A stretch of 64,000 nt of DNA from a virus (Duplodnaviria > Caudoviricetes), in the IMG/VR virus record IMGVR_UViG_2724679705_000002, positions 2,069 through 66,068 of that record; one strand, given 5' to 3'. Shown piece by piece: positions 25,443 to 38,568 of the stretch. Every line of letters begins with the position of its first letter. Position 1 is the stretch's first letter. The translations under genes and the position numbers were made by a program. Under the pieces are notes generated by a model, which did no database searches, was not told the DNA's origin, and saw only the letters and a program-made list of their open reading frames with translations.

Positions 25443-28400
25443 CTACACCGAATTGGTCATCAGTACCTTTGCGATACTCTGACTCCACGCGGTCTTGAAC
25501 GCAGGATCTGAGGCGAAGAGCCTGTAAAGCTCCAGTTCTTCCTTTCTACGCTTCAGCATTACTTCCTGCAGCATTTTTTCAAGGGCCAGGCCGCGGTTAT
25601 ATGGGTCACTATTCGCTTCGTACTTTTCAGTGTAGTCGGGGTGCGACCGTATACTGTTCACGACGTTGATAAACTTGACCCGTTGTTCCTCCGGTGTGGC
25701 GCTCCATCCCTGAAACCATCGTTCGTTGAAGGACCGAATGATCTCGTCGAGGGGGTCTTTCTCGGGTTCACCATCCCGATAGCCCCGCGGATTGGGGTTC
25801 TGGGGTTCGAGTTCGGTTGGGGATGCGTCGAGACCGATCGTGTGGTTCAGTTTGGTCCGCTCCAGGCCATAAGAGGATAGGTCGACGGCCTCCAGCAACT
25901 CGTCCAACATGTCCTGGTCCGGATCCTTGATCTTCAGCTTTGGCACCAGGAACTTCAGGAACCAGAAGAGCTTCTCCCATTCCAGAACCTCGAACGGCAT
26001 GATCGACGCCATCTGGCCATAGATCTTGACGAACTGCCGCGCCTTGATCTTGACGTCGATCTTGTCCTTCTCGGCTAGTTCCAGTTGCTGGTTGAACCGA
26101 TCGGCCGCCACGTCGATCAACGGGCTGAGCGTCTGAGCATCCTCACCCGCGAAGTAGCGCGTGACGAACTCTTCGACCTCCTGCCATTCGTATACGCCGA
26201 CCTGGTCAAGCGGTCCCTTCAGCTCGTGAAGGACATTCACATCCGTTGCGGATGAAAGGGTGGTGACAGTGTAGAAGGGGTCGAAGGCCGCCTTGATGTC
26301 GGTCACGTCGTTGAAAAAGTCCAGGATGAACAGGTCCTCGGTCCGTTTGCCGAGTTTCGGTGCCGAACGGTTCAGCCGTGACAGCGCCTGCACGGCGAGG
26401 ACGTACTGCAGCTTTTTGTCCACATACATCGTGGTCAGTTTCGGCTGGTCGAAACCGGTCAGATACTTGTTGGCCACCACCAACAGCCGGTAGTCATCCT
26501 CGTCGAACCTGTCCCGCGTGTCGGCTTCGGGAAAGCCGTTCATCTCGGCCTCGGTGTAGGTCACCCCGTCCACGACCTTCTCGCCCGAGAATGCGATCAG
26601 CGCCTTGAATGGGTTGCCCCGCTCCGCCAGCAACTTGGTCACGGCCTTGTAATAGCGGATGGCCGCCTCGATGTTTTGGGTGACGATCATCCCCTTGGCC
26701 TTGCCGCGCAGCTTCTTCGGCGTCACCACATGTTCGATGAAATGGTCGAGCATGATCTCGGCCTTGGTGTTGATCGTCTGCTGGCTGCGCTCGACATAGG
26801 CGCGCAGCTTCTTCTGCGCCTTCTTCGTGTCGAACAGGGGGTTGTCGGCAATCGACTTCTGGATCTCGTAATAGCTCTTATAGGTCGTGTAGTTCGCCAA
26901 AACGTTGAGGATGAAGCCTTCCTCGATCGCCTGCTTCATGCTGTAGAGATGGAAGGGCTTGAAGCTGCCATCCGCCTGGCGCTCGCCGAACTTTTCCAGC
27001 GTCGTGTTCTTGGGCGTCGCGGTGAAGGCGAAATACGAGGCGTTGCCCCGCATCTTGCGCGACTGCATCGCCGCGAGGATGCGGTCCTGCGGGTCATCCT
27101 CGTCCGGGTCCTGATCGCCCGCACCCATCGCGCGGTTCATGTTGTCATGCGCGCTGCCGCTCTGGCCGCTGTGGGCCTCGTCGATGATCACCGCGAACCG
27201 CTTGTCACTCAGGTCGGCGATCCCCTCGATGATGAAGGGGAACTTCTGGATCGTGGTGATGATGATCTTCTTGCCGTTCTCCAGCGCCGATTTCAGATCG
27301 GCCGACCGCAGCGCCGGGGCGACGATGTTCTTGACCTCGGAGAAGTCCTTGATGTTCTCCCGCAGCTGCTTGTCCAGAAGCCGCCGGTCGGTCACCACGA
27401 TCACGCTGTCGAACAGCGGCTGGTCCAGCCCCTTGGCGCCCGGAATGCCCAACTTGGCCGGATAGGTCTCGATCAGCTGATAGGCCGTCCAGGTGATCGA
27501 GTTCGACTTGCCCGAACCCGCCGAGTGCTGGATCAGATAGCTGTGCCCCACGCCAGTCGTGGCCGCATGGGCCAGCAATCGGCGCACCACCTCCAGCTGG
27601 TGATAGCGCGGGAAGATCATCGACTTCTTGGCCAGCGGGTCAGTCGCCTTGCCCTCCAGCAGCACGAAATGCTGGATGATCCCCGCAAGGCTTTCCTTGG
27701 TGAAAACCTCTTCCCACAGATAGGCGGTCTTGTGACCATTGGGGTTGGGCGGGTTGCCTTCGCCCTGTTCATGGCCCTTGTTGAAGGGCAGGAAGAATGT
27801 CGCGGGCCCGGCCAGTTTCGTGGTCATGAACACCTCGTCGGTGTCCACCGCCATATGCACCAGCGCGCGACCGAACTGCAGCAGGGGCTGGGTGGCGTCG
27901 CGGCCGTCGCGATACTGCTTTTGCCCGTGATAGCGGGCGGTCTGGCCTGTCCAGGCGTTCTTCAACTCGATGGTGATCAGCGGCAGCCCGTTGAGGAAGA
28001 GGACCATGTCGATCTCTTCGCCCGGGTTGGTCTGCGAATAGCGGACCTGCCGGGTCACGCTGAAGATATTGGCGGCGAAGTTTTCTTGCACCTTGGTGGC
28101 CGAGCTGGCCAGCGGCGCGGGATACATCAGCGCAAAGAAGGCGTCATCGACGGCAAGGCCCTTCTTCAGCAGATGCAGCACGCCGTTCTTCTTGATCAGC
28201 CGGTCGAAGCGTTCAAGGATCTTGCGCTGCCAGTCGGCAGGATTGCGGTCCTTCAGCTTGGCCAGCTCCTTGCCTTGGGTGGTTTCCAGAAACTCCCAGA
28301 ACAGCCGGGTGTCGAGTGCGTATTCGGCGTCGAAATCGGCGGGCAGGCCAAGGCGGAATGGGCCGTGGCCTTCGGGGGCGGGGTGGCCGGCCAGTTCCTC

Positions 28401-28469
28401 GGTTGTCAGGCCCGTCAGGTGCCGCTGGATCGCCTGTTCCAGTGCCACTTCCTTGGTGTTGCTGACCAT
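25443..28469 (-). CDS. hsdR: Type I restriction enzyme R subunit
   Basis: D..LFLNGLPLITIELK nuclease motif; QHSAGSGKS, IIDEAH, FTATP and YLTGFDQP helicase motifs. Confidence 0.97.
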   Translation of the reverse strand: MVSNTKEVALEQAIQRHLTGLTTEELAGHPAPEGHGPFRLGLPADFDAEYALDTRLFWEFLETTQGKELAKLKDRNPADWQRKILERFDRLIKKNGVLHLLKKGLAVDDAFFALMYPAPLASSATKVQENFAANIFSVTRQVRYSQTNPGEEIDMVLFLNGLPLITIELKNAWTGQTARYHGQKQYRDGRDATQPLLQFGRALVHMAVDTDEVFMTTKLAGPATFFLPFNKGHEQGEGNPPNPNGHKTAYLWEEVFTKESLAGIIQHFVLLEGKATDPLAKKSMIFPRYHQLEVVRRLLAHAATTGVGHSYLIQHSAGSGKSNSITWTAYQLIETYPAKLGIPGAKGLDQPLFDSVIVVTDRRLLDKQLRENIKDFSEVKNIVAPALRSADLKSALENGKKIIITTIQKFPFIIEGIADLSDKRFAVIIDEAHSGQSGSAHDNMNRAMGAGDQDPDEDDPQDRILAAMQSRKMRGNASYFAFTATPKNTTLEKFGERQADGSFKPFHLYSMKQAIEEGFILNVLANYTTYKSYYEIQKSIADNPLFDTKKAQKKLRAYVERSQQTINTKAEIMLDHFIEHVVTPKKLRGKAKGMIVTQNIEAAIRYYKAVTKLLAERGNPFKALIAFSGEKVVDGVTYTEAEMNGFPEADTRDRFDEDDYRLLVVANKYLTGFDQPKLTTMYVDKKLQYVLAVQALSRLNRSAPKLGKRTEDLFILDFFNDVTDIKAAFDPFYTVTTLSSATDVNVLHELKGPLDQVGVYEWQEVEEFVTRYFAGEDAQTLSPLIDVAADRFNQQLELAEKDKIDVKIKARQFVKIYGQMASIMPFEVLEWEKLFWFLKFLVPKLKIKDPDQDMLDELLEAVDLSSYGLERTKLNHTIGLDASPTELEPQNPNPRGYRDGEPEKDPLDEIIRSFNERWFQGWSATPEEQRVKFINVVNSIRSHPDYTEKYEANSDPYNRGLALEKMLQEVMLKRRKEELELYRLFASDPAFKTAWSQSIAKVLMTNSV

Positions 28470-28478
28470 GATCCCCCC

Positions 28479-29786
28479 TTACGCCACCTTGATCTTGCCC
28501 GTGACCGCCGCGTTGATCAGGCTGGTCTTGTATTCTTTGAGTGCGGCGATCTGGTCTTCTTTAAATGATATGGCCCGATCATATTCGCCATTAAGCCCTT
28601 CGAGATGCTCTGTCAGGGCTTGTCGCTCTTCCGGTGGCGGAATCGGAACAGATATCGAATTGAGATTTGAGGTTGTAAGCTGGTTGATTGTCGCGGTCAG
28701 AAACGATCCAGCGAGCATCCGGAAAATCTCGCTATTGAGGATCTGAAAGATGTATCGGTTCATTTCAGATCGAAACACAGTGGTGAACGCACCAAAGCTC
28801 GCACCGGTGTCATCGTGTGTCGCTAACGCACATTTCCCGATGAGGTCACGACTTCCGTTCCGAGAGCAAATTAGGATGTCATTCGCGCGTATTCTGAGTT
28901 TTTCGGGAATGCGCATTCGGACATAGGCGTTGAGTCCGTCCCCGTAGACAAACTTGCCGCTCTTCAGGTTCGATGACCGCAAAACGAGAGTGCCCTCATC
29001 CTCGTCACAGAGGTCTTTGGGATCATAAGTCAGGCCAATCACAGCATTTCCAAGATGCTTGAGCCGCTTCACTTCCCAATGCGCGGGGATTTGGCCGATC
29101 CAGTCTATACGGCTGTCCTTCATGGGGGCGGAGGGGTTCAGGCCGCGGGTCACGGCCTGTTGGATCAGGATCTGCCGCCGCTCGCGCAACAGCGCGATCT
29201 GCTCTTCCTTGATCCGCACCGCCTCGTCCACCTTGGCGCATTTCTCATCCAGAAACGCCGCGATGGCGCGTTGTTCCTCGGGTGAGGGGATGGGCAGGCG
29301 CAGGTATTTGAAGTCGTCATAGGACAAGTTCTGCCGCAGCCCTGAGCCCAGAGCGTAGAAAACCTTCTTCACGTCGTAGGAATGCAGCAGGTAATGCAGG
29401 AACGCCGGGTCAATCTCGGCCTTAGGTCGAAGGTTGATGTAGGCCGACGTGATGATGCCAGTATCACGCGCCAACCCCGTGCGCAGGCTTGTCATATCGT
29501 TTTGCAGATCGGTGCCGCGAATGATTATGTCGCCGGGCTGGACGATCTGGTAGGTCTCGAAGCTTTCCGGCACCAGTCCGGTCAGCTTGTCCTCGTCTTT
29601 CACGATCACCCGGCCATAGCTCAGGGAAAGCACGGTGCTTTCCTTCATGCCGGTGTTCTTGTCCTTGTTTTCATACAGACACTGGCGGCCCGGTTCGACG
29701 CGCCAGTCTGCGGGCACTTCGCCGATCCACTCGACACCGCTCTCCTTGTAGTTGTCATAGGTCGGCCAGGCGGCGAGCGTCATCAC
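28479..29786 (-). CDS. hsdS: Type I restriction enzyme S subunit
   Basis: Two TRDs with conserved IP.PP.EEQ..I..FLD and LKEYKTSLINAAVTGK regions. Confidence 0.95.
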   Translation of the reverse strand: MMTLAAWPTYDNYKESGVEWIGEVPADWRVEPGRQCLYENKDKNTGMKESTVLSLSYGRVIVKDEDKLTGLVPESFETYQIVQPGDIIIRGTDLQNDMTSLRTGLARDTGIITSAYINLRPKAEIDPAFLHYLLHSYDVKKVFYALGSGLRQNLSYDDFKYLRLPIPSPEEQRAIAAFLDEKCAKVDEAVRIKEEQIALLRERRQILIQQAVTRGLNPSAPMKDSRIDWIGQIPAHWEVKRLKHLGNAVIGLTYDPKDLCDEDEGTLVLRSSNLKSGKFVYGDGLNAYVRMRIPEKLRIRANDILICSRNGSRDLIGKCALATHDDTGASFGAFTTVFRSEMNRYIFQILNSEIFRMLAGSFLTATINQLTTSNLNSISVPIPPPEERQALTEHLEGLNGEYDRAISFKEDQIAALKEYKTSLINAAVTGKIKVA

Positions 29787-32173
29787 ACCGCCTCCGACAG
29801 ATCGGCGGGCTTCACACCCAGAATATCGGCGATCAGGCCATCGGCCTTTTGCTCCAGCGCCAGAATGTCCCGCGTCACGTCATCCAGGCTGCGCAGCGGC
29901 TTGTGGCGGTAGAAATACTTGTTGAAGCTGATCTCGTAGCCGATCTTGACCGTGTCGAGGTTGATCCAGGCCTCGGGCACATGCGGCTTTACCTCGGCCT
30001 TGAAATAGCGGTGGATGCTGTCTTTCAGGGCCACCGCCTCGCTGTCGCGCAGGTCGGTGCTGGGGGCGTAGGTCAGGTAACTGCCATCCGGCTGGGCATA
30101 AAGGCCGAAGTCGCCCAACTCGTCGATGCCACAGCCAAGCCGCTCTGCCACCGCCTCCAGCTCTGCCTTGGAATAGCGCTGGATGCTGTCGATCACCTTT
30201 TCCGCGTCATCGGCATACCAGCTGACGGCGTTCAGGATCGCGTTCTTCTCGGTGGCGGTCAGCTTGATCTTGCGGGCCTTCAGCACCTTGCCGACGTGAT
30301 CGCGGAAGGCGTTGAAATCCGCCGTCTCTTCGGTGCCTACGGCCTCCATCAGCTGATGGCCGACCCCGATCAGATCGCGCTGGCGCAGCCAGAGCGAGGT
30401 GTCGACCAGTTTGCCACGCTGCTTGGCGTTCAGCGCGATCTCCTGCTCCTCGCACCAGGCCTGGATCGCCTTGGCCTGGGCCTTCAGGAAGCCGGGTTCA
30501 TAGACCTTGTCGCCATGTTCGGCCCACAGATGCTCCATCGGTTCGCGAAGGGATTTGTCGAAGCGCAGAGGTTCCAGCCGTTCGCGCGTGATGCGCGCGC
30601 GGCGGCGGTCGGGGCGTTCGATGGTGACCTTGTGATAGCCGAAATCGGTGTTGTCGAAGATTTGCACCGCAATGCCGGTGGGATCGCCGTTCGCGTCAAG
30701 CTGCCGTTCGACCGGCTGGAAGGCCATGTAGGCGGCGATGATGTCGTCGATATGTTCCGGGGCGAATTCGCAGTTCTTGTCGCCAAGGTTCTTGCGCAGC
30801 TTGCGGAACATCAGGTTGGCGTCGATCAGCTGCACCCGGCCGCGCCGCCCCTCGGGCTTGGCGTTGGTCAGAAGCCAGATGTAGGTGGTGATGCCAGTGT
30901 TGTAGAACAGGTTGTTCGGCAGCTGGATGATGGTGTCCAGCATGTCGTTTTCGATGATGAAGCGGCGGATGTTGGATTCGCCGCTGCCCGCGTCACCGGT
31001 GAACAGGCTGGAGCCGTTGTGGACGGAGGCGATGCGCGAGCCGATGGGGCTGTTGGCGATGGGCTTCATCTTGCCCACCATCTCCATCAGGAACAGAAGC
31101 TGGCCGTCGCTGGAGCGCGGTGTTGCGTCGACGGTTTCCGTCTTGCCCCAATAATCGGTCAGTTCCACCTGGAAGCGCGGGTCGATGACGTCGTTGCCAT
31201 CCTTGATGTGCTTCAGGTCGCTCTTCCAGCTCTTGCCGTAGGGCGGGTTCGACAGCATGAAGTCGAAGCGATGGCCCGAAAATTCGTCGGTGGACAGCGT
31301 CGAGCCGACCTTGATGTTCTCGGGGTTGTTGCCCTTGATCATCATGTCGGATTTGCAGATGGCATAGGTCTCGTCGTTGATTTCCTTGCCATAAAGGTAG
31401 ACGTCGCCCTTGGCCGCGATGGGGCCTTCGGGTTCCTTGATGTAGTTCTGGGCCTCGGTCAGCATCCCGCCGCTGCCGCAGGCGGGGTCGTAGATTGTCA
31501 TCACCGGCGGCAACTGGCCGCTGATCGGGTCGAAGATGAGGTGGGTCATCAGATGGATGACCTCACGCGGGGTGAAATGCTCCCCGGCTTCTTCGTTGTT
31601 TTCCTCGTTGAACTTGCGGATCAGCTCTTCGAAGACATAGCCCATGCCGAGGTTTGACAGACCGGGCATCATGTTGCCGTCCGGGTCTTCGGCGTCGTGG
31701 GGCGTCAGGTTGATGTAAGGCGAAATGAACTTTTCGAGGACGTCGAGCAGGACCTGCTTGTTCGCCATGTGCCGCATCTGCTCGAGCAGCTTGAAGCGGG
31801 CGATGATCTCTTTGACGTTGTCGCTGAAGCCGCCGAGATATTCCTCGACGTTGGCCAGCAGGATCTGCTGGTTGTTCGTGGCCGTGGCGTAGAGCTGTTT
31901 AAGCGTCCACTTGCTGGTGTTGTAAAACACGTATCCCGAAGCAGCGGTCAGCGGGGCATCATCGAGCTCTGTCGCCTTCATCTCTTCGCGCTGGAAGCGG
32001 ACTTCCTCCAGGACGGCCGCCTTGGTGGGTTCCAGCAGCGTGTCGAGGCGCCGTAATACGACCATCGGCAGGATAACGTCACGGTACTTGCCGCGCACAT
32101 AGACGTCGCGCAGGCAATCGTCAGCAATGGACCAGATGAAAGAGATGAGCTTGTTGTGGGCGGCCTGGTTCAT
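29783..32173 (-). CDS. hsdM: Type I restriction-modification M subunit
   Basis: GEHFTPRE, YDPACGSGGML and NPPY motifs. Confidence 0.97.
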   Translation of the reverse strand: MNQAAHNKLISFIWSIADDCLRDVYVRGKYRDVILPMVVLRRLDTLLEPTKAAVLEEVRFQREEMKATELDDAPLTAASGYVFYNTSKWTLKQLYATATNNQQILLANVEEYLGGFSDNVKEIIARFKLLEQMRHMANKQVLLDVLEKFISPYINLTPHDAEDPDGNMMPGLSNLGMGYVFEELIRKFNEENNEEAGEHFTPREVIHLMTHLIFDPISGQLPPVMTIYDPACGSGGMLTEAQNYIKEPEGPIAAKGDVYLYGKEINDETYAICKSDMMIKGNNPENIKVGSTLSTDEFSGHRFDFMLSNPPYGKSWKSDLKHIKDGNDVIDPRFQVELTDYWGKTETVDATPRSSDGQLLFLMEMVGKMKPIANSPIGSRIASVHNGSSLFTGDAGSGESNIRRFIIENDMLDTIIQLPNNLFYNTGITTYIWLLTNAKPEGRRGRVQLIDANLMFRKLRKNLGDKNCEFAPEHIDDIIAAYMAFQPVERQLDANGDPTGIAVQIFDNTDFGYHKVTIERPDRRRARITRERLEPLRFDKSLREPMEHLWAEHGDKVYEPGFLKAQAKAIQAWCEEQEIALNAKQRGKLVDTSLWLRQRDLIGVGHQLMEAVGTEETADFNAFRDHVGKVLKARKIKLTATEKNAILNAVSWYADDAEKVIDSIQRYSKAELEAVAERLGCGIDELGDFGLYAQPDGSYLTYAPSTDLRDSEAVALKDSIHRYFKAEVKPHVPEAWINLDTVKIGYEISFNKYFYRHKPLRSLDDVTRDILALEQKADGLIADILGVKPADLSEAV

Positions 32174-32363: not shown

Positions 32364-33032
32364 TCATTTACAGGAAATCCAAGGCCGCGCCTTCGGCATC
32401 GCCACCGTCACCTCGACCTCCCGCAGCATCCCGCCCGCGATCAGCCCCTCGCGGACCCAGCCCAGCGCGTGCCACCAGTCCTCATAACTCCGCCTGGCGG
32501 CCTCAATCTGGTGCGGGTGGGGGGAGAAGGTGACCGGGCAGGCTAGGATGTCGATGGTCTTCCAAGTGGCGCGAGCGCCCGGGCCGCGCACGCGGATGCG
32601 TTCGGTACCTACGACGATGGCGCCCGCATGTGTGCCATGCTGGTTCTGTTTCACGATGGTCGGCACGCAGCGCGGCACAGCGCCGGGCATCCAGTCCGGG
32701 GTCAGCCCGGCGCGGGCCAGTTCGGCGACGCGGATCGCCATGCGCTTGCCGCCGAGGCTGTCGGGGATCCCGGCGACGGTGGCGGCGATCACCTCGGCGT
32801 CCTCGTGGGTGTAGCCGCCGATTTTGTGCTGGCCGCCGTCGATCTTGCAGCCCAGCACGGCGCGCTGGAGGAGGACGTATTCCAGGCCGAAGCCGAAACC
32901 TTCCTCGGTGACGTCCGGGGGCAGGGGCAGTTCCAGCTGCGCCTGTTCGATCCGGAACGCCCATTCCAGCGCGGCCTGCACGCCCAGCGCGCGTTTGATC
33001 CTGGTGCCGCTGACGCGGCCGTGGAAGCTCAT
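32364..33032 (-). CDS. Hypothetical phage protein (position of a late-gene regulator)
   Basis: 222 aa, last gene of the replication operon; function unresolved. Confidence 0.65.
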   Translation of the reverse strand: MSFHGRVSGTRIKRALGVQAALEWAFRIEQAQLELPLPPDVTEEGFGFGLEYVLLQRAVLGCKIDGGQHKIGGYTHEDAEVIAATVAGIPDSLGGKRMAIRVAELARAGLTPDWMPGAVPRCVPTIVKQNQHGTHAGAIVVGTERIRVRGPGARATWKTIDILACPVTFSPHPHQIEAARRSYEDWWHALGWVREGLIAGGMLREVEVTVAMPKARPWISCK

Positions 33033-34117
33033 GGCTTCAATCCTTCAAGGAAATCCATCTGCGCCGGGCGCTGGGCCGCATCCGTCGGCCGCCAGATCCA
33101 CGGGCCCGAGGCCATGGGCAGCTGCGAGAGAGCGCCACGCATGTGCCGCTGCCAGAGGGTGAACTCCATTTCCGAGCAGGCGCAGAGCGCGTGCCCGATA
33201 GGCCAGCCCATCAGCCATCCGACGAAGAGCGGGTTCAGCCGCCGCCGCGACCTGCCCTTCAGGATCCGCCGCGAGACGACGCGCCCATGCGAGGCAATCA
33301 TCGAAGCCCAGAGCGGGCGCGAGATCGGGGCGTGCGGCGAGGACCGCGGCCCATCCGGCGAAATCGCCGGGGCCGGGCGGGTGAAGCCCTGCTCCGCCCG
33401 GTAGTGCAGCAGGTCCATCCGGGATTTGCCGTCGCTGCGGGTGATGCTGGCCTCGCTCGACCCCTTCCAGTTCTGGGCGGCCGGTGTCGGCCAGTGGTTC
33501 GGTAGGGCCGTCGCGATGCCCAGCGCCAGCGCTTCTGCCTTCCGGGTAAAGTCGCTGTTCCCGGCCGGGTTGTAGCGGCCGGTGCCGGGGTGCAGGCTCA
33601 TCGGTGTGGGCCAGGATGAAGATACGCAGCCGCTCGTGCGGCGCGCCGACCTCTGCCGCCGAGAACAGGCCCGCCGCAGGCATGTAGCCCAATCCCCAAA
33701 GCTCTCGCAGGACGGTCTCGAGGCCGAGGGTGACGTGCCCGGCGACGTTTTCGAGGAAGACCCATTCGGGGCGGCACTCGCCGATAACGCGGGCGACATC
33801 GGGCCAGAGGTGGCGGGGATCGTCGGCGCCGCCGCGTTTCCCGGCCGCGCTGAAGGGTTGGCAGGGATAGCCTGCGAGGACGGCATCGAAGGCCCCGCGG
33901 AAGGGGCGGGCATCGAAGCTGCGCAGGTCGGTCCAGATCGGGGCCGGGGCGAAGTATTCGGCGTGCTGGGCCGCGATGAGGACGGCGCGCGGCCAGTCCT
34001 CCCATTCGACGAAGGCGCGGGTGTGATAGCCGGGCTCGGCGAGCATGAGGCCCAGATCAAGGCCTCCGCCGCCTGCGCAGAGGGAGAGTCCGTGCCGGGG
34101 ACGTGACACCATGCCAT
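33029..34117 (-). CDS. Overlapping alternative-frame ORF carrying C5-MTase motif IX (beta-like polypeptide; real start uncertain)
   Basis: WPTP twice and RRLNPLFVGWLMGWP; frame open across the whole alpha gene. Confidence 0.7.
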   Translation of the reverse strand: MAWCHVPGTDSPSAQAAEALIWASCSPSPAITPAPSSNGRTGRAPSSSRPSTPNTSPRPRSGPTCAASMPAPSAGPSMPSSQAIPANPSARPGNAAAPTIPATSGPMSPALSASAAPNGSSSKTSPGTSPSASRPSCESFGDWATCLRRACSRRQRSARRTSGCVSSSWPTPMSLHPGTGRYNPAGNSDFTRKAEALALGIATALPNHWPTPAAQNWKGSSEASITRSDGKSRMDLLHYRAEQGFTRPAPAISPDGPRSSPHAPISRPLWASMIASHGRVVSRRILKGRSRRRLNPLFVGWLMGWPIGHALCACSEMEFTLWQRHMRGALSQLPMASGPWIWRPTDAAQRPAQMDFLEGLKP

Positions 34118-34121
34118 TCAC
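33045..34121 (-). CDS. C5 cytosine DNA methyltransferase, alpha-like polypeptide (motifs I, IV, VI, VIII, X)
   Basis: LCAGGGG, AGYPCQPFS, ENV, PHERLRIF and LLGNGV motifs; no motif IX in this frame. Confidence 0.88.
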   Translation of the reverse strand: MNGMVSRPRHGLSLCAGGGGLDLGLMLAEPGYHTRAFVEWEDWPRAVLIAAQHAEYFAPAPIWTDLRSFDARPFRGAFDAVLAGYPCQPFSAAGKRGGADDPRHLWPDVARVIGECRPEWVFLENVAGHVTLGLETVLRELWGLGYMPAAGLFSAAEVGAPHERLRIFILAHTDEPAPRHRPLQPGREQRLYPEGRSAGAGHRDGPTEPLADTGRPELEGVERGQHHPQRRQIPDGPAALPGGAGLHPPGPGDFAGWAAVLAARPDLAPALGFDDCLAWARRLAADPEGQVAAAAEPALRRMADGLAYRARALRLLGNGVHPLAAAHAWRSLAAAHGLGPVDLAADGCGPAPGADGFP

Positions 34122-35125
34122 CGCACCCCGCGCTCGCGCAGGCGTTGGGCCGTGACCAGCCCCCGGGCCAGCATGGCATCGCGCATGGTGTTGCTGATCG
34201 CGCTGACTGGCAGGTAGCGGTCGGAGTTGACGAGTTCGGCGTAGAAGGCGGGCAGGTCGGTGATCGGCTTTGCCGCCGACGCGGGGGCCGCTTTCGGCTT
34301 TCGGCGCTTCCGCCCGGCATCCTCGGCCTTGCGCTGGGCGGCGCGCTGCATCGCCCGGTCCAGCGCCTTCGGACCATCGGGCGGTTTGGGGTGTTCCTGG
34401 CGGCTGGCCTCGGCCGCGGCGATGATCTCCGCCTCGGTCAGCCCCAGCTCATCGCGCCAGCGCTGCACGTGCAACCGGGGCGGCCAGCCTTGCCACCAGC
34501 CGGGCAGGGCGGCGGGGTCGAGGCCGAGTGCCGCGAGCAGGTCCCCGAAAACCTCATCGGAAATTGCCTCGCGCGCTTGCGCGCCCTCCTCCTCCTTTAC
34601 TGGTTTACTTAGAGGTTCCCTTACAGGGTTAGTGTCCGAAATCCGGACACGGCTTTCGGCATTTTCCGGACACGGCTCGGCCGAAAAATCGGACACGGGA
34701 CTCGCCTCATCCCCGTGTCCGAAATCCGGACACGGCAAGGCATCGGCCATGGCGTCATCGTCACAAACATCGGTACTGTCGCGGCTTTCTACGCCCTGAT
34801 CCTGTCCGTGTCCGGTTTCCGGACACGGCACCACAGCCACAGGTGCGAAGCCCGGCTCAAACCCCAGGATGTAGCGGGTGGGCAGCTGGCGCTTGGTCAC
34901 AGGGTCCAGCCGCGGCACCCGCCGCAGCAGACCCACGGCCTCCAGCTGGCCAAGGTGATCGTTCAGCGTTGATCGGCTGATCTCGCAGTCATGCGCCAGC
35001 CGGTCCTGTGAGGGGAAGCAGCCGTAGTCGGGGTTGAACCGGTCGCAGAGGTGCCAGAGCACGATCTTGGTCGTCGGCTTCAATCCGCGCTGCTTGATGG
35101 CCCAGTTGGTGGCCTCGTGACTCAT
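34118..35125 (-). CDS. Phage replication initiator with N-terminal wHTH
   Basis: MSHEATNWAI...KIVLWHLCD...CFPSQDRLAHDCEISRST; internal iterons. Confidence 0.85.
   Translation of the reverse strand: MSHEATNWAIKQRGLKPTTKIVLWHLCDRFNPDYGCFPSQDRLAHDCEISRSTLNDHLGQLEAVGLLRRVPRLDPVTKRQLPTRYILGFEPGFAPVAVVPCPETGHGQDQGVESRDSTDVCDDDAMADALPCPDFGHGDEASPVSDFSAEPCPENAESRVRISDTNPVREPLSKPVKEEEGAQAREAISDEVFGDLLAALGLDPAALPGWWQGWPPRLHVQRWRDELGLTEAEIIAAAEASRQEHPKPPDGPKALDRAMQRAAQRKAEDAGRKRRKPKAAPASAAKPITDLPAFYAELVNSDRYLPVSAISNTMRDAMLARGLVTAQRLRERGVR
34632..34828. repeat. Iterons, probable replication origin inside the initiator gene
   Basis: Palindromic CCGTGTCCG-N4-CCGGACACGG-type units at 34632, 34713 and 34806; half-sites at 34663 and 34686. 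Confidence 0.75.
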
Positions 35126-35517
35126 GGCGCGGGCCTCCGCGGGGCAGGAGCGATACGCGTGGTGAAGCCTTGATCGGCCAGCGCGCCCAGCGCATCGTCG
35201 AGACTGCGCACCAGCGCCCAGCCGAACCCATGCGCCCGCACCGCATCGCGGAACGCCTCCTGTTCCGGCCGCAATCGCCCCTTCGGAGCCTTCAGTTCGA
35301 GGAACAGGACGCGGCCGTCGCAGAGCACCATCAGATCGGCGAACCCGGCATGGACGCCCATGCCGACAAGGATCGCCTGGCGCTTCGCCCCGCGGGGCCC
35401 GGCCTCGGTCACCTCGTTGGCGCAGTGGTGGATGATGGCGCTGCGGGGCAGGGCGATGCGCAGCGTCTGCACCACGGCACGCTGCAGGTCGGCCTCGGGG
35501 GTGCCGCGGCGTTTCAT
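35122..35517 (-). CDS. VRR-NUC domain nuclease
   Basis: GVHAGFADL..L....VLFLELKAPKGRL PD-(D/E)xK motif. Confidence 0.88.
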   Translation of the reverse strand: MKRRGTPEADLQRAVVQTLRIALPRSAIIHHCANEVTEAGPRGAKRQAILVGMGVHAGFADLMVLCDGRVLFLELKAPKGRLRPEQEAFRDAVRAHGFGWALVRSLDDALGALADQGFTTRIAPAPRRPAP

Positions 35518-37226: not shown

Positions 37227-38498
37227 TCAGGCCGATTTCGGCAAGTCGGTTCCGTCCTGCGCTGCGTCATGCACAAGGCGGGGCCGCGGGCGCAGGAGAC
37301 TGGCCACCGTATCGACGCCTGCGCGCAAGGGGGAATCCATCAGGTGCGCATAACGCTGGGTGGTCTGCATCTGGCTGTGGCCCAAGAGCTTGCCGATCAT
37401 TTCCAGCGATGCGCCGCCGCTGACAAGCAGGGAGGCGAAGGTGTGGCGCAGGTCGTGGATGCGGACGTCGGCCAGCCCGGCGTCCTTCTGTGCCTTGGCC
37501 CAGAAACGGCGGATTTCACGCACCGGCTGGCCAACCGTCTCGCCGGGGAAGAGCCACGGATTGCCGCTCGGCACCGCCCGCAGGCGCAGGCGCACGATGG
37601 CTGCGACGTCCTGCGAGATCGGCACACGGTGGATCTTGCGCTGCTTGGTGGTCGAGGCGGGTTTCGACCAGATGGCATAGTCGAGGTTGAACTGTTCGAA
37701 CCGCGCGGTCCTGACCTCGCCCACCCGCGCGCCGGTCAACATGCACATGCGGATGATCGCCGCGGCGCGCTGATCCTCGGCTGTATCCAGCACGACCGCC
37801 AGCCGGGTCAGTTCTTCGGGCGACAGGAACCGTTCGCGGGCATGTTCAATGCGCCGATGGAACCCCTGCGCGGGGTTGTCCGTCCGCCATTCCCATTCCA
37901 CCGCCAGCGTGAACATCTTGCGCAGCACCTCGCCCATGCGGTTGGCCCGGATTGGGGTTGGCTTGTGACCCTGCAGCTTTCGGGCGCGGTTGTTGGGCTT
38001 TGCCTTGCAGGGGCGGGGGCGGCCCTCTGCCACGAAATCGAGGAACTTCGCGACGTCGGACTTGGTGATCTCCGTCACCAGCCGGTTGCCCCAGGCCGGT
38101 TCGACCATCTTCTTCAGCATCGAGAGCTGGTCGCCTGCATTGGTCTTGGCCAGTTTTGGCAGGTGTTCAGCGATGTAACGGTCGATCATGTCGGTGATGC
38201 GCGGGGCCCCGCGCCACTCGTCGCGCGCCGCCAGAGGATCCTGCCCTTCGTCGATGGCGCGGCGCAGTTCCTTGGCGCGTTCGCGCGCGGCCGTGACACT
38301 CCATTCCGGCCAGCGCCCGATGGTCATCCGCCGCTGCCGCCCTGCGTGCCGGTAGTCGATGGTGAACGTGCGCGCGCCCGAGGCCTGAACCCGGGCGGCG
38401 AAGCCGATCACTTCCGTGTCGAAGATCTGATAGCTGACGCCGGGCTTGGGTTCCGCCTCGCGCAGGGTTTTTTCATTGAGTTTCAGTCTCTTGACCAT
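37227..38498 (-). CDS. int: Tyrosine integrase with N-terminal arm-binding domain (P4-like)
   Basis: TGARVGE, HDLRH, LLGH and TQRYAH catalytic motifs; RRMTIGRWPEWSV arm domain. Confidence 0.95.
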   Translation of the reverse strand: MVKRLKLNEKTLREAEPKPGVSYQIFDTEVIGFAARVQASGARTFTIDYRHAGRQRRMTIGRWPEWSVTAARERAKELRRAIDEGQDPLAARDEWRGAPRITDMIDRYIAEHLPKLAKTNAGDQLSMLKKMVEPAWGNRLVTEITKSDVAKFLDFVAEGRPRPCKAKPNNRARKLQGHKPTPIRANRMGEVLRKMFTLAVEWEWRTDNPAQGFHRRIEHARERFLSPEELTRLAVVLDTAEDQRAAAIIRMCMLTGARVGEVRTARFEQFNLDYAIWSKPASTTKQRKIHRVPISQDVAAIVRLRLRAVPSGNPWLFPGETVGQPVREIRRFWAKAQKDAGLADVRIHDLRHTFASLLVSGGASLEMIGKLLGHSQMQTTQRYAHLMDSPLRAGVDTVASLLRPRPRLVHDAAQDGTDLPKSA

Positions 38499-38568
38499 GC
38501 ATCCCGCCTCCTTGCCCGACGACACAGGCGTAGACCCGCGCCACTATCAAGTCGGACCACGGGGCCGG

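Follow-up and report, generated by a model that had tools for sequence, protein, structure and literature searches.

Two co-extensive reading frames of a prophage gene appear to encode the large and small domains of one C5 methyltransferase

Introduction

Can the two domains of one enzyme be encoded by the same kilobase of DNA in two different reading frames? This question is raised by a methylase gene in a 64,000-nucleotide stretch of a Caudoviricetes virus (IMG/VR record IMGVR_UViG_2724679705_000002, positions 2,069 to 66,068; hereafter the window, to which all coordinates refer). In this gene, two open reading frames (ORFs), termed frame A and frame B, lie on the minus strand and overlap completely over ~1.09 kb. 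The best explanation, with a probability of roughly 0.75, is that the gene is an orphan C5 methyltransferase of a prophage whose two domains would be read from the same 1.09 kb, in two frames, as two polypeptides. An earlier reading of the window, made from its letters alone and called the original prediction below, had proposed an overprinted two-polypeptide C5 methyltransferase resembling M.EcoHK31I; at the level of sequence that proposal holds, with both frames selected and open.

In canonical C5 methyltransferases such as M.HhaI, motifs I–VIII and X make up the large domain, and the variable region and motif IX make up the small domain. Enzymes of this class that consist of two polypeptides are established, as is complementation between fragments (PMC2836561, PMC3404938). 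M.EcoHK31I (E. coli HK31, YGGCCR) is a two-polypeptide C5 methyltransferase for which both chains are needed (Lee, Kam and Shaw 1995, as described in PMC2836561 and PMC3404938). Its alpha chain carries motifs I–VIII, motif X and the target-recognition domain (TRD), and its beta chain, which carries motif IX only, is encoded in another frame inside alpha (PMC2836561). M.AquI (CYCGRG) is an alpha/beta enzyme split within the variable region, whose chains reconstitute activity; alpha holds motifs I–VIII, and beta holds the distal variable region together with motifs IX and X (Karreman and de Waard 1990; PMC3404938).

Openness and constraint in the two frames

Frame A encodes 358 aa from a GTG start, and its product is referred to here as alpha. 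Frame B, in register +1 relative to A, encodes 362 aa from an ATG start. The two are co-extensive, and the coordinates and lengths of the fully overlapping ORFs described in the original prediction (358 and 362 codons) were reproduced. The GC content of the methylase region is 70%, compared with 66% for the genome, and at such a composition chance open frames needed to be excluded. Homologous loci were therefore compared in a set of 159, made up of 80 genome loci (mostly from Rhodobacteraceae, at 86–97% nucleotide identity) and 79 IMG/VR viral contigs, some of which duplicate genome loci. The full architecture, consisting of an RTGA-ATG junction, a full-length B and an alpha stop at −16, is present in 133 of the 159, and the third frame is interrupted in every locus compared.

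Variation was assigned to the frames in a codon alignment of 79 loci, and the codon position at which it accumulates changes along the gene. From 34117 to ~33640, diversity lies at the third position of A (pi, the nucleotide diversity, ~0.3), and the amino acids of B are unconserved. At ~33620 the variable position moves from the third of A to the third of B. Per-column counts show all codon positions to be almost invariant at 33623–33591, with A third positions freezing from 33621, 20 nt before an internal ATG of frame B (33599–33601), and B third positions varying from 33590. From ~33590 to 33400, diversity lies at the third position of B, and the frame A amino acids, here the alpha linker, are unconserved. 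In the presumed recognition part, 86 variant alleles are synonymous in B only, versus 16 in A only. Frame A conservation resumes from 33389, and at 33399–33341 conservation is stronger in frame A (GLHPPGPGD..W) than in B. Over 33340–33130, per-position pi is 0.002–0.15 and mostly <0.09, versus ~0.3 at free positions elsewhere, and there are 0.42 variant alleles per site, versus 0.72–0.88 elsewhere; all three codon positions are nearly frozen in this stretch because both protein sequences are conserved. At 33129–33032 the third position of B varies most again. About 47 codons are under constraint in both frames. Such a mosaic of codon positions cannot arise from a single coding frame.

Each frame avoids codons that would place a stop in the other. 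Among the fourfold Leu and Val codons of frame A in the catalytic half, those that precede a codon starting with A end in G or A in 0 of 299 instances (14 sites), versus 29% at similar sites elsewhere. In the B-coded half, a third-position T precedes AA, AG or GA in only 5 of 1688 instances (alpha's own stop excluded), versus 9.8% elsewhere, and many B third positions at these sites still vary among C, G and A. Selection therefore keeps both frames open, even where the amino acids are free. The original prediction would have been undermined by stops breaking the alternative frame in close homologues; instead both frames stay open, and on this comparative evidence both are under purifying selection.

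The chance of such openness was gauged with 1021 likely genes of at least 300 codons from the 66% GC genome. The +1 frame of these genes averages 3.2 stops per 100 codons and is never open among the 1021, whereas the −1 frame averages 0.73 stops per 100 codons and is open in 65 genes (6%). That B is open across 172 codons of the catalytic half is remarkable, because ~5.5 stops are expected there. In a single sequence it is no surprise that frame A is open where B codes, −1 frames containing few stops; what is remarkable for the second half of frame A is that it stays open in homologues.

Division of the motifs between the frames

Motifs I, IV, VI and VIII, which had been predicted in frame A, were each located there by coordinates (Table 1), and PF00145 matches the first half of alpha. 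This match covers aa 12–179 only, equivalent to profile positions 4–168 of 324 (E value 1.3e-30). The motif I and motif IV columns of alpha are invariant across 74 homologues, its ENVAG and HERLRIF align with M.HhaI residues 71–174, and hhalign matches its catalytic half to canonical C5 methyltransferases with a probability of 99.3%. TIGR00675 (dcm) likewise covers only the first half of alpha, with a score of 75 against a cut-off of 100.65, and PHROGs assigns alpha to phrog_363, DNA methyltransferase. Judged by these matches, the first half of alpha is unambiguously the catalytic half of a C5 methyltransferase.

Between motifs VIII and X, frame A lacks motif IX and a TRD and has an unconserved linker in their place, and profile matches end in the first half; the earlier claim that frame A is without motif IX is thus confirmed. 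An AlphaFold2 monomer model predicts, at low confidence, no secondary structure for alpha residues 179–253. The mean predicted local distance difference test score of such models is 44 for alpha and 56.5 for the second half of B, which is too low for a fold search. Further on, the motif X candidate LLGNGVHPLAAAHAW (G-N-x-V...P) is invariant in alpha homologues, and the amino-acid diversity of this stretch is 0.022 in frame A versus 0.112 in frame B. The sole hhalign match of the C-terminal part of alpha to canonical enzymes aligns RARALRLLGNGVHPLAAAHAWRSL with motif X, weakly (E value 0.3).

The two WPTP motifs expected in frame B were found there. The conserved part of B spans ~197 aa; the first ~165 residues are unconstrained and rich in Ser, Ala and Pro. 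The motif IX equivalent that had been proposed for frame B, RRRLNPLFVGWLMGWPIGH, is near-invariant. Compared by hhalign with an alignment of 12 canonical C5 enzymes from related genomes, the B profile gives a single match, which places this stretch on motif IX (PRRLTPRECARLMGF), again weakly (E value 0.08). Although both hhalign matches are weak, each falls exactly on the expected motif. The claim that the alternative frame supplies a motif IX equivalent thus stands, but not as motif IX alone, since the W-x-T-P repeats are there too. On the DNA, the motif X candidate starts at the end of the motif IX equivalent, an order that is the same as in canonical enzymes. The tail motif of B is also seen in a cyanophage relative (MRSALSQL). 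PHROGs places frame B in phrog_27243, of unknown function, and an ESM Atlas search with B gave no usable match. Given the canonical domain make-up, alpha would therefore correspond to the large domain and the second half of B to the small domain.

The first residues of B, M-x-W-x-[Y/H/F]-[V/I]-P (34094-34117, minus strand), recur in distant relatives (L082:880-900 and L242:1439-1459), in contrast to the next ~160, unconstrained residues. They may be a functional peptide, a signal of the initiation region or a by-product of the N-terminus of alpha.

Start and stop junctions

Both starts lie beside the stop of the upstream initiator gene, in agreement with the original prediction: the GTG at 34121 overlaps the TGA, and the ATG at 34117 directly follows it. 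The RTGA-ATG junction is found in 77/81 genome loci and 69/79 viral loci. The B ATG is invariant in all 77 junction-bearing loci, and the codon after it is variable (GCA, ACA, GTG, CCC, TCA, GTC). Alpha starts with GTG in most loci and ATG in few; a second in-frame alpha ATG at 34110–34112 is not conserved. At the other end, the alpha stop precedes the B stop by 16 nt in 77/81 genome loci, and the B stop overlaps the ATG of the next gene as ATGA in 133/133 loci, with an ORF of at least 150 aa following in 127. In 76/81 loci, frame B runs without a stop for exactly 516 nt before the internal ATG. The coupling of B to its neighbors at both ends supports its translation from ATG 34117, which is probably where its synthesis begins.

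The beta chain of M.EcoHK31I is a small nested ORF of 61 aa. The expectation of a second chain encoded within alpha was borne out as far as the alternative frame is concerned, but frame B is not a small nested ORF, being co-extensive with alpha and having its ATG beside the alpha start.

Proposed production of two chains

In the proposed mechanism, ribosomes that end the upstream gene at its TGA, or that bind the GGGG in front of it, would start at either GTG 34121 or ATG 34117; two starts 4 nt apart, flanking the upstream stop, would then set the subunit ratio. Frame A would give alpha, composed of an S-adenosylmethionine (AdoMet)-binding and catalytic half (motifs I–VIII), ~65 free residues and a C-terminal part that is conserved and helical and has motif X at its end; the ~65-residue linker would be an out-of-frame reading of the recognition part of B. 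Frame B would give ~165 unconstrained residues, representing the catalytic half of alpha misread, and then a small domain with the W-x-T-P repeats, the motif IX equivalent RRLNPLFVGWLMGWP and the conserved tail. A single enzyme would form by non-covalent association of the two chains, as it does for M.EcoHK31I, M.AquI and C5 methyltransferases that have been split artificially. We infer that both proteins are made, that the chains bind and that the enzyme is active. Lying in a phage replication module as an orphan methylase, it would most likely protect phage DNA from restriction.

Several observations weigh against this two-chain mechanism. What links B to the canonical small domain is a resemblance of motifs (hhalign E values 0.08 and 0.3), and frame B has no match in Pfam, NCBIfam or, with the B profile at E values up to 10, the PDB. 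An unconstrained N-terminal extension of 165 residues is an odd and costly design. The internal ATG of frame B is kept in 78/81 loci and could be the real start. In addition, 8 of the 150 best representatives, and P0084, fuse the catalytic domain to B-like sequence, and these sporadic metagenomic fusions show that single-chain forms can arise. The fused ORFs join at different points, and several are without a TRD, so they are read as frameshift errors or mutants. A single-chain ancestral clade was considered and rejected, as the fused ORFs have differing junctions and several skip the TRD. The fused metagenome proteins are P0084, P0305, P0355, P0372, P0359, P0376, P0379 and P0284; in the last, the junction lies just before WPTP and is made by a 35-aa insert, and this one might be a natural fusion.

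Alternative explanations

A two-chain enzyme could also arise if B started at the internal ATG, giving a beta chain of 190 aa (217 aa in most homologues), with the upstream part of frame B kept open for some other reason such as ribosome delivery or coupling. Gene callers mostly give the 217/248-aa form of B, and besides the retention of this ATG, the amino acids of B are unconstrained upstream of ~33621. However, the internal ATG has no Shine-Dalgarno sequence, is replaced by ACG in L048 and GTG in L009, and has no counterpart in cyanophage and K1ind1 relatives, in which there is no Met near the equivalent WPT motif. Moreover, constraint on B begins 7 codons before it (SSSWPTP), no variation is seen in the 5ʹ ATG, and the 172 upstream codons avoid stops. 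An internal start is thus viewed as unlikely. The onset of B constraint upstream of the internal ATG would also suit a programmed +1 frameshift from A to B near 33623–33591, which would yield a fusion of motifs I–VIII, TRD and IX beside full-length alpha; so would the near-invariance of the 33-nt hand-over block at all codon positions and the sporadic fused ORFs in metagenomes. Yet, by inspection, the frozen block contains no slippery or hungry-codon motif, and a shift needs neither a conserved ATG at 34117 nor stop avoidance across the upstream half. B of K1ind1 has its own GGAG-ATG, the metagenomic fusions join at varied places, as errors or mutations would, and the predicted fusion would lack motif X. 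Such a frameshift is accordingly given little credence.

Two shifts, from A to B after motif VIII and back to A after motif IX, would produce one polypeptide, and a pseudogene with two compensating indels would look similar. The succession along the DNA of motifs I–VIII (A), TRD and IX (B) and X (A), with X beginning where IX ends, is canonical and agrees with this; the order may reflect how the layout arose. However, frame A is conserved at aa 245–280, better than B, in a stretch that B would supply, and B is conserved after motif IX, varying at its own third position. Frame A also avoids stops throughout the linker, and the identical layout is found in hundreds of diverged loci. The double frameshift, which the original prediction had offered as its alternative, is contradicted by the conservation of alpha aa 245–280 and of the B tail, and this class of explanation as a whole is very improbable. 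Least credible is the view that frame B, or the second half of frame A, is open by accident of a GC-rich composition and that only one protein is made: the region is 70% GC and a −1 frame is open in 6% of genes, but the switch of codon positions, the two-way stop avoidance, the absence of any open +1 frame among 1021 and the occurrence of the layout in phages of 32–48% GC all oppose it. A chance ORF is excluded by these comparative data.

Distribution and origin of the layout

In public proteins, frame A is represented by entries of 355–416 aa annotated "DNA cytosine methyltransferase," and frame B by 689 matches of 217/248 aa or 389 aa annotated "hypothetical protein" or "DNA methyltransferase." The annotation of B is inconsistent, since "Mte8-like protein" and, in PHROGs, "unknown function" are used as well, and most public records call only one of the two frames. 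Length variants are paired (358/362, 385/389 and 416/420 aa), with indels in multiples of 3; indels therefore keep both frames, including those of 27 and 58 codons in homologues. A phmmer search with the second half of B against 1.84 billion representatives gave 998 clusters (50% identity) at E ≤0.001.

With a 40%-identical representative as the starting point, 80 diverse viral loci were collected. Relative to the B-like match, 77 of the 80 have their catalytic domain in the −1 frame, and none has it in the same frame. Their GC content ranges from 0.32 to 0.73, the open frame of B over the catalytic domain has a median length of 142 codons, and the same nested layout also occurs in the 32–48% GC phages. 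In the cyanophage Yong-M2-251, co-extensive ORFs of 379 and 371 aa start 7 nt apart in the same register, with RRVADGL over FVEWLMGW and MLGNGVVP over ACSATEL. In K1ind1, an E. coli Kagunavirus, both ORFs are annotated, and B begins 88 nt inside alpha, at an ATG preceded by a GGAG of its own. A further, diverged copy with the same layout is found on another contig (C35, L242:1430-2545) of the genome that carries the window; its alpha has 365 aa and its B 371 aa. This copy sits behind a ParB-like/DNA-methylase fusion gene, and its starts are swapped: the GTG of B overlaps the upstream TGA, and the alpha ATG lies 5 nt later. Among 61 genomes of the same bacterial family, ~14 PF00145 matches cover only about positions 4–168 of the profile, and the others are full-length.

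Taken together, these loci are somewhat more likely than not to represent a very large and ancient family of phage and prophage cytosine methyltransferases in which every gene would consist of two nearly co-extensive same-strand ORFs, whose products would reassemble one enzyme from its large and small domains. In this family-wide reading, one half of each product would be a functional domain and the other an unconstrained spacer, and the family would span ~1000 clusters at 50% identity, with hosts as different as Rhodobacteraceae, E. coli and cyanobacteria. The overlap probably originated when an ancestor acquired two frameshifts, one compensating the other, on either side of the small domain.

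In a few loci, alpha is cut short. Frame A ends early in L064, with a stop 47 nt past the internal ATG, and alpha is shortened by ~11 residues in L001, L021 and L096 and by several hundred nucleotides in L139, L146, L152 and L161; these may be decaying copies or assembly errors. Short metatranscriptome contigs of relatives, from four libraries, span the gene; such contigs cannot show transcription, starts or frames, and a DNA origin is possible.

Relation to known enzymes

The locus resembles M.EcoHK31I in that motifs I–VIII are on alpha, as is the motif X candidate, and that the motif IX equivalent would be on a second chain in another frame. It differs in that the W-x-T-P recognition-like part is in frame B, whereas the TRD of M.EcoHK31I is in alpha, and, compared by description, in that B is co-extensive with alpha (362 versus 358 codons) and appears to start 4 nt from the alpha start. 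Unlike in M.AquI, the motif X equivalent is on the catalytic chain, and the division is by frame and not by position along the gene. The first 177 residues of alpha and the order of motifs along the DNA are shared with canonical C5 methyltransferases (M.HhaI, M.HaeIII, PF00145), but no single frame of the locus holds all ten motifs. The closest annotated parallel in layout, ORF29 ("C-specific methylase") and ORF28 ("Mte8-like protein") of K1ind1, is in GenBank and RefSeq; the pair is of the same family and has the same +1 nesting, but its B starts 88 nt into alpha and is ~30% identical to B of the window. No published description of the two-frame layout, including the K1ind1 pair, was found in the literature searched, REBASE being outside this search. 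A split along the domain boundary with co-extensive ORFs, as the typical layout of a very large phage family, thus appears to be new.

Should the two proteins be produced and associate, a pair of folded domains from a single enzyme would share DNA in different frames, and the 1.09-kb overlap would be a rare test bed for the information load of a single sequence. If the family-wide reading is correct, these overlaps would be among the longest and most widespread conserved same-strand overlaps in prokaryotic viruses. Half-profile PF00145 matches of the kind described above could be mistaken for truncated genes. A split between large and small domains, if real, would also be of the kind sought for targeted methylation tools (PMC2836561, PMC3404938).

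Features and genomic context

Table 1. Features of the methylase gene and its surroundings (window positions)
Feature	Position	Strand	Comment
Upstream-gene TGA stop	34118..34120	-	End of O-like replication initiator; pivot for both starts; phrog_345, HTH_36
Frame A (alpha) GTG start	34119..34121	-	Overlaps upstream stop as GTGA; Shine-Dalgarno-like GGGG at 34126-34129
Frame B ATG start	34115..34117	-	Immediately after upstream stop
Alpha ORF, predicted large-domain polypeptide	33045..34121	-	Cytosine methyltransferase homologues; phrog_363 over aa 12-335
Frame B ORF, predicted small-domain polypeptide plus unconstrained N-terminal half	33029..34117	-	689 matches; phrog_27243, E 3.6e-103
Catalytic half of alpha, aa 3-177, motifs I, IV, VI, VIII	33591..34114	-	Third-position variation in A; hhalign 99.3%
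Motif I, LCAGGGG	34062-34082	-	Frame A
Motif IV, GYPCQPFS	33849-33872	-	Frame A
Motif VI, ENV	33738-33752	-	Frame A
Motif VIII, HERLRIFILAH	33606-33638	-	Frame A
Hand-over zone, 33 nt	33591..33623	-	Near-invariant at all codon positions; A: IFILAHTDEPA, B: SSSWPTPMSL
B aa 166-245, presumed target-recognition part, W-x-T-P repeats	33383..33622	-	Third-position variation in B
First WPTP	33602-33613	-	Frame B
Second WPTP	33482-33493	-	Frame B
Alpha linker, aa 178-244	within 33383..33622	-	Frame A reading of presumed recognition part of B; unconserved
Conserved C-terminal part of alpha, aa 245-344	33090..33389	-	GLHPPGPGD, RPDLAPALGFDDCLAWA, LRRMADGL, motif X candidate LLGNGVHPLAAAHAW
Motif X candidate LLGNGVHPLAAAHAW	33135-33179	-	Frame A
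Motif IX equivalent RRRLNPLFVGWLMGWPIGH	33191..33247	-	Frame B; near-invariant
Doubly constrained stretch	33130..33340	-	Both proteins conserved, nucleotide diversity collapsed
Frame B tail past motif IX, begins MRGALSQLPMASGPWIW	33032..33142	-	Coded in B; frame A tail unconserved
3ʹ end	33029..33047	-	Alpha TGA 33045-33047; AGGA 33041-33044 is Shine-Dalgarno of next gene; B TGA 33029-33031
ATG of next gene	33030-33032	-	Overlaps B stop
Integrase (tyrosine)	37227-38525	-	Prophage-like element
VRR-NUC nuclease	35122-35517	-	Prophage-like element
O-like replication initiator	34118-35122	-	Directly upstream of methylase gene
phrog_9306 ORF, 222 aa, unknown function	32364-33032	-	Directly downstream
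Type I hsdM	29783-32173	-	796 aa, long C-terminal extension
Type I hsdS	28479-29786	-	
Type I hsdR	25443-28469	-	Full type I set 25443-32173

Relatives of the methylase occur on IMG/VR viral contigs. The 502-aa ORF of the upstream initiator (from 35626) overlaps the VRR-NUC ORF, and its true start is therefore probably near 35122. The phrog_9306 ORF always accompanies the methylase, and it is the ATG of this ORF that overlaps the B stop in each of the 133 loci checked. Downstream of the methylase, and two genes away from it, there is a full type I restriction-modification set, apparently in the same integrated element.

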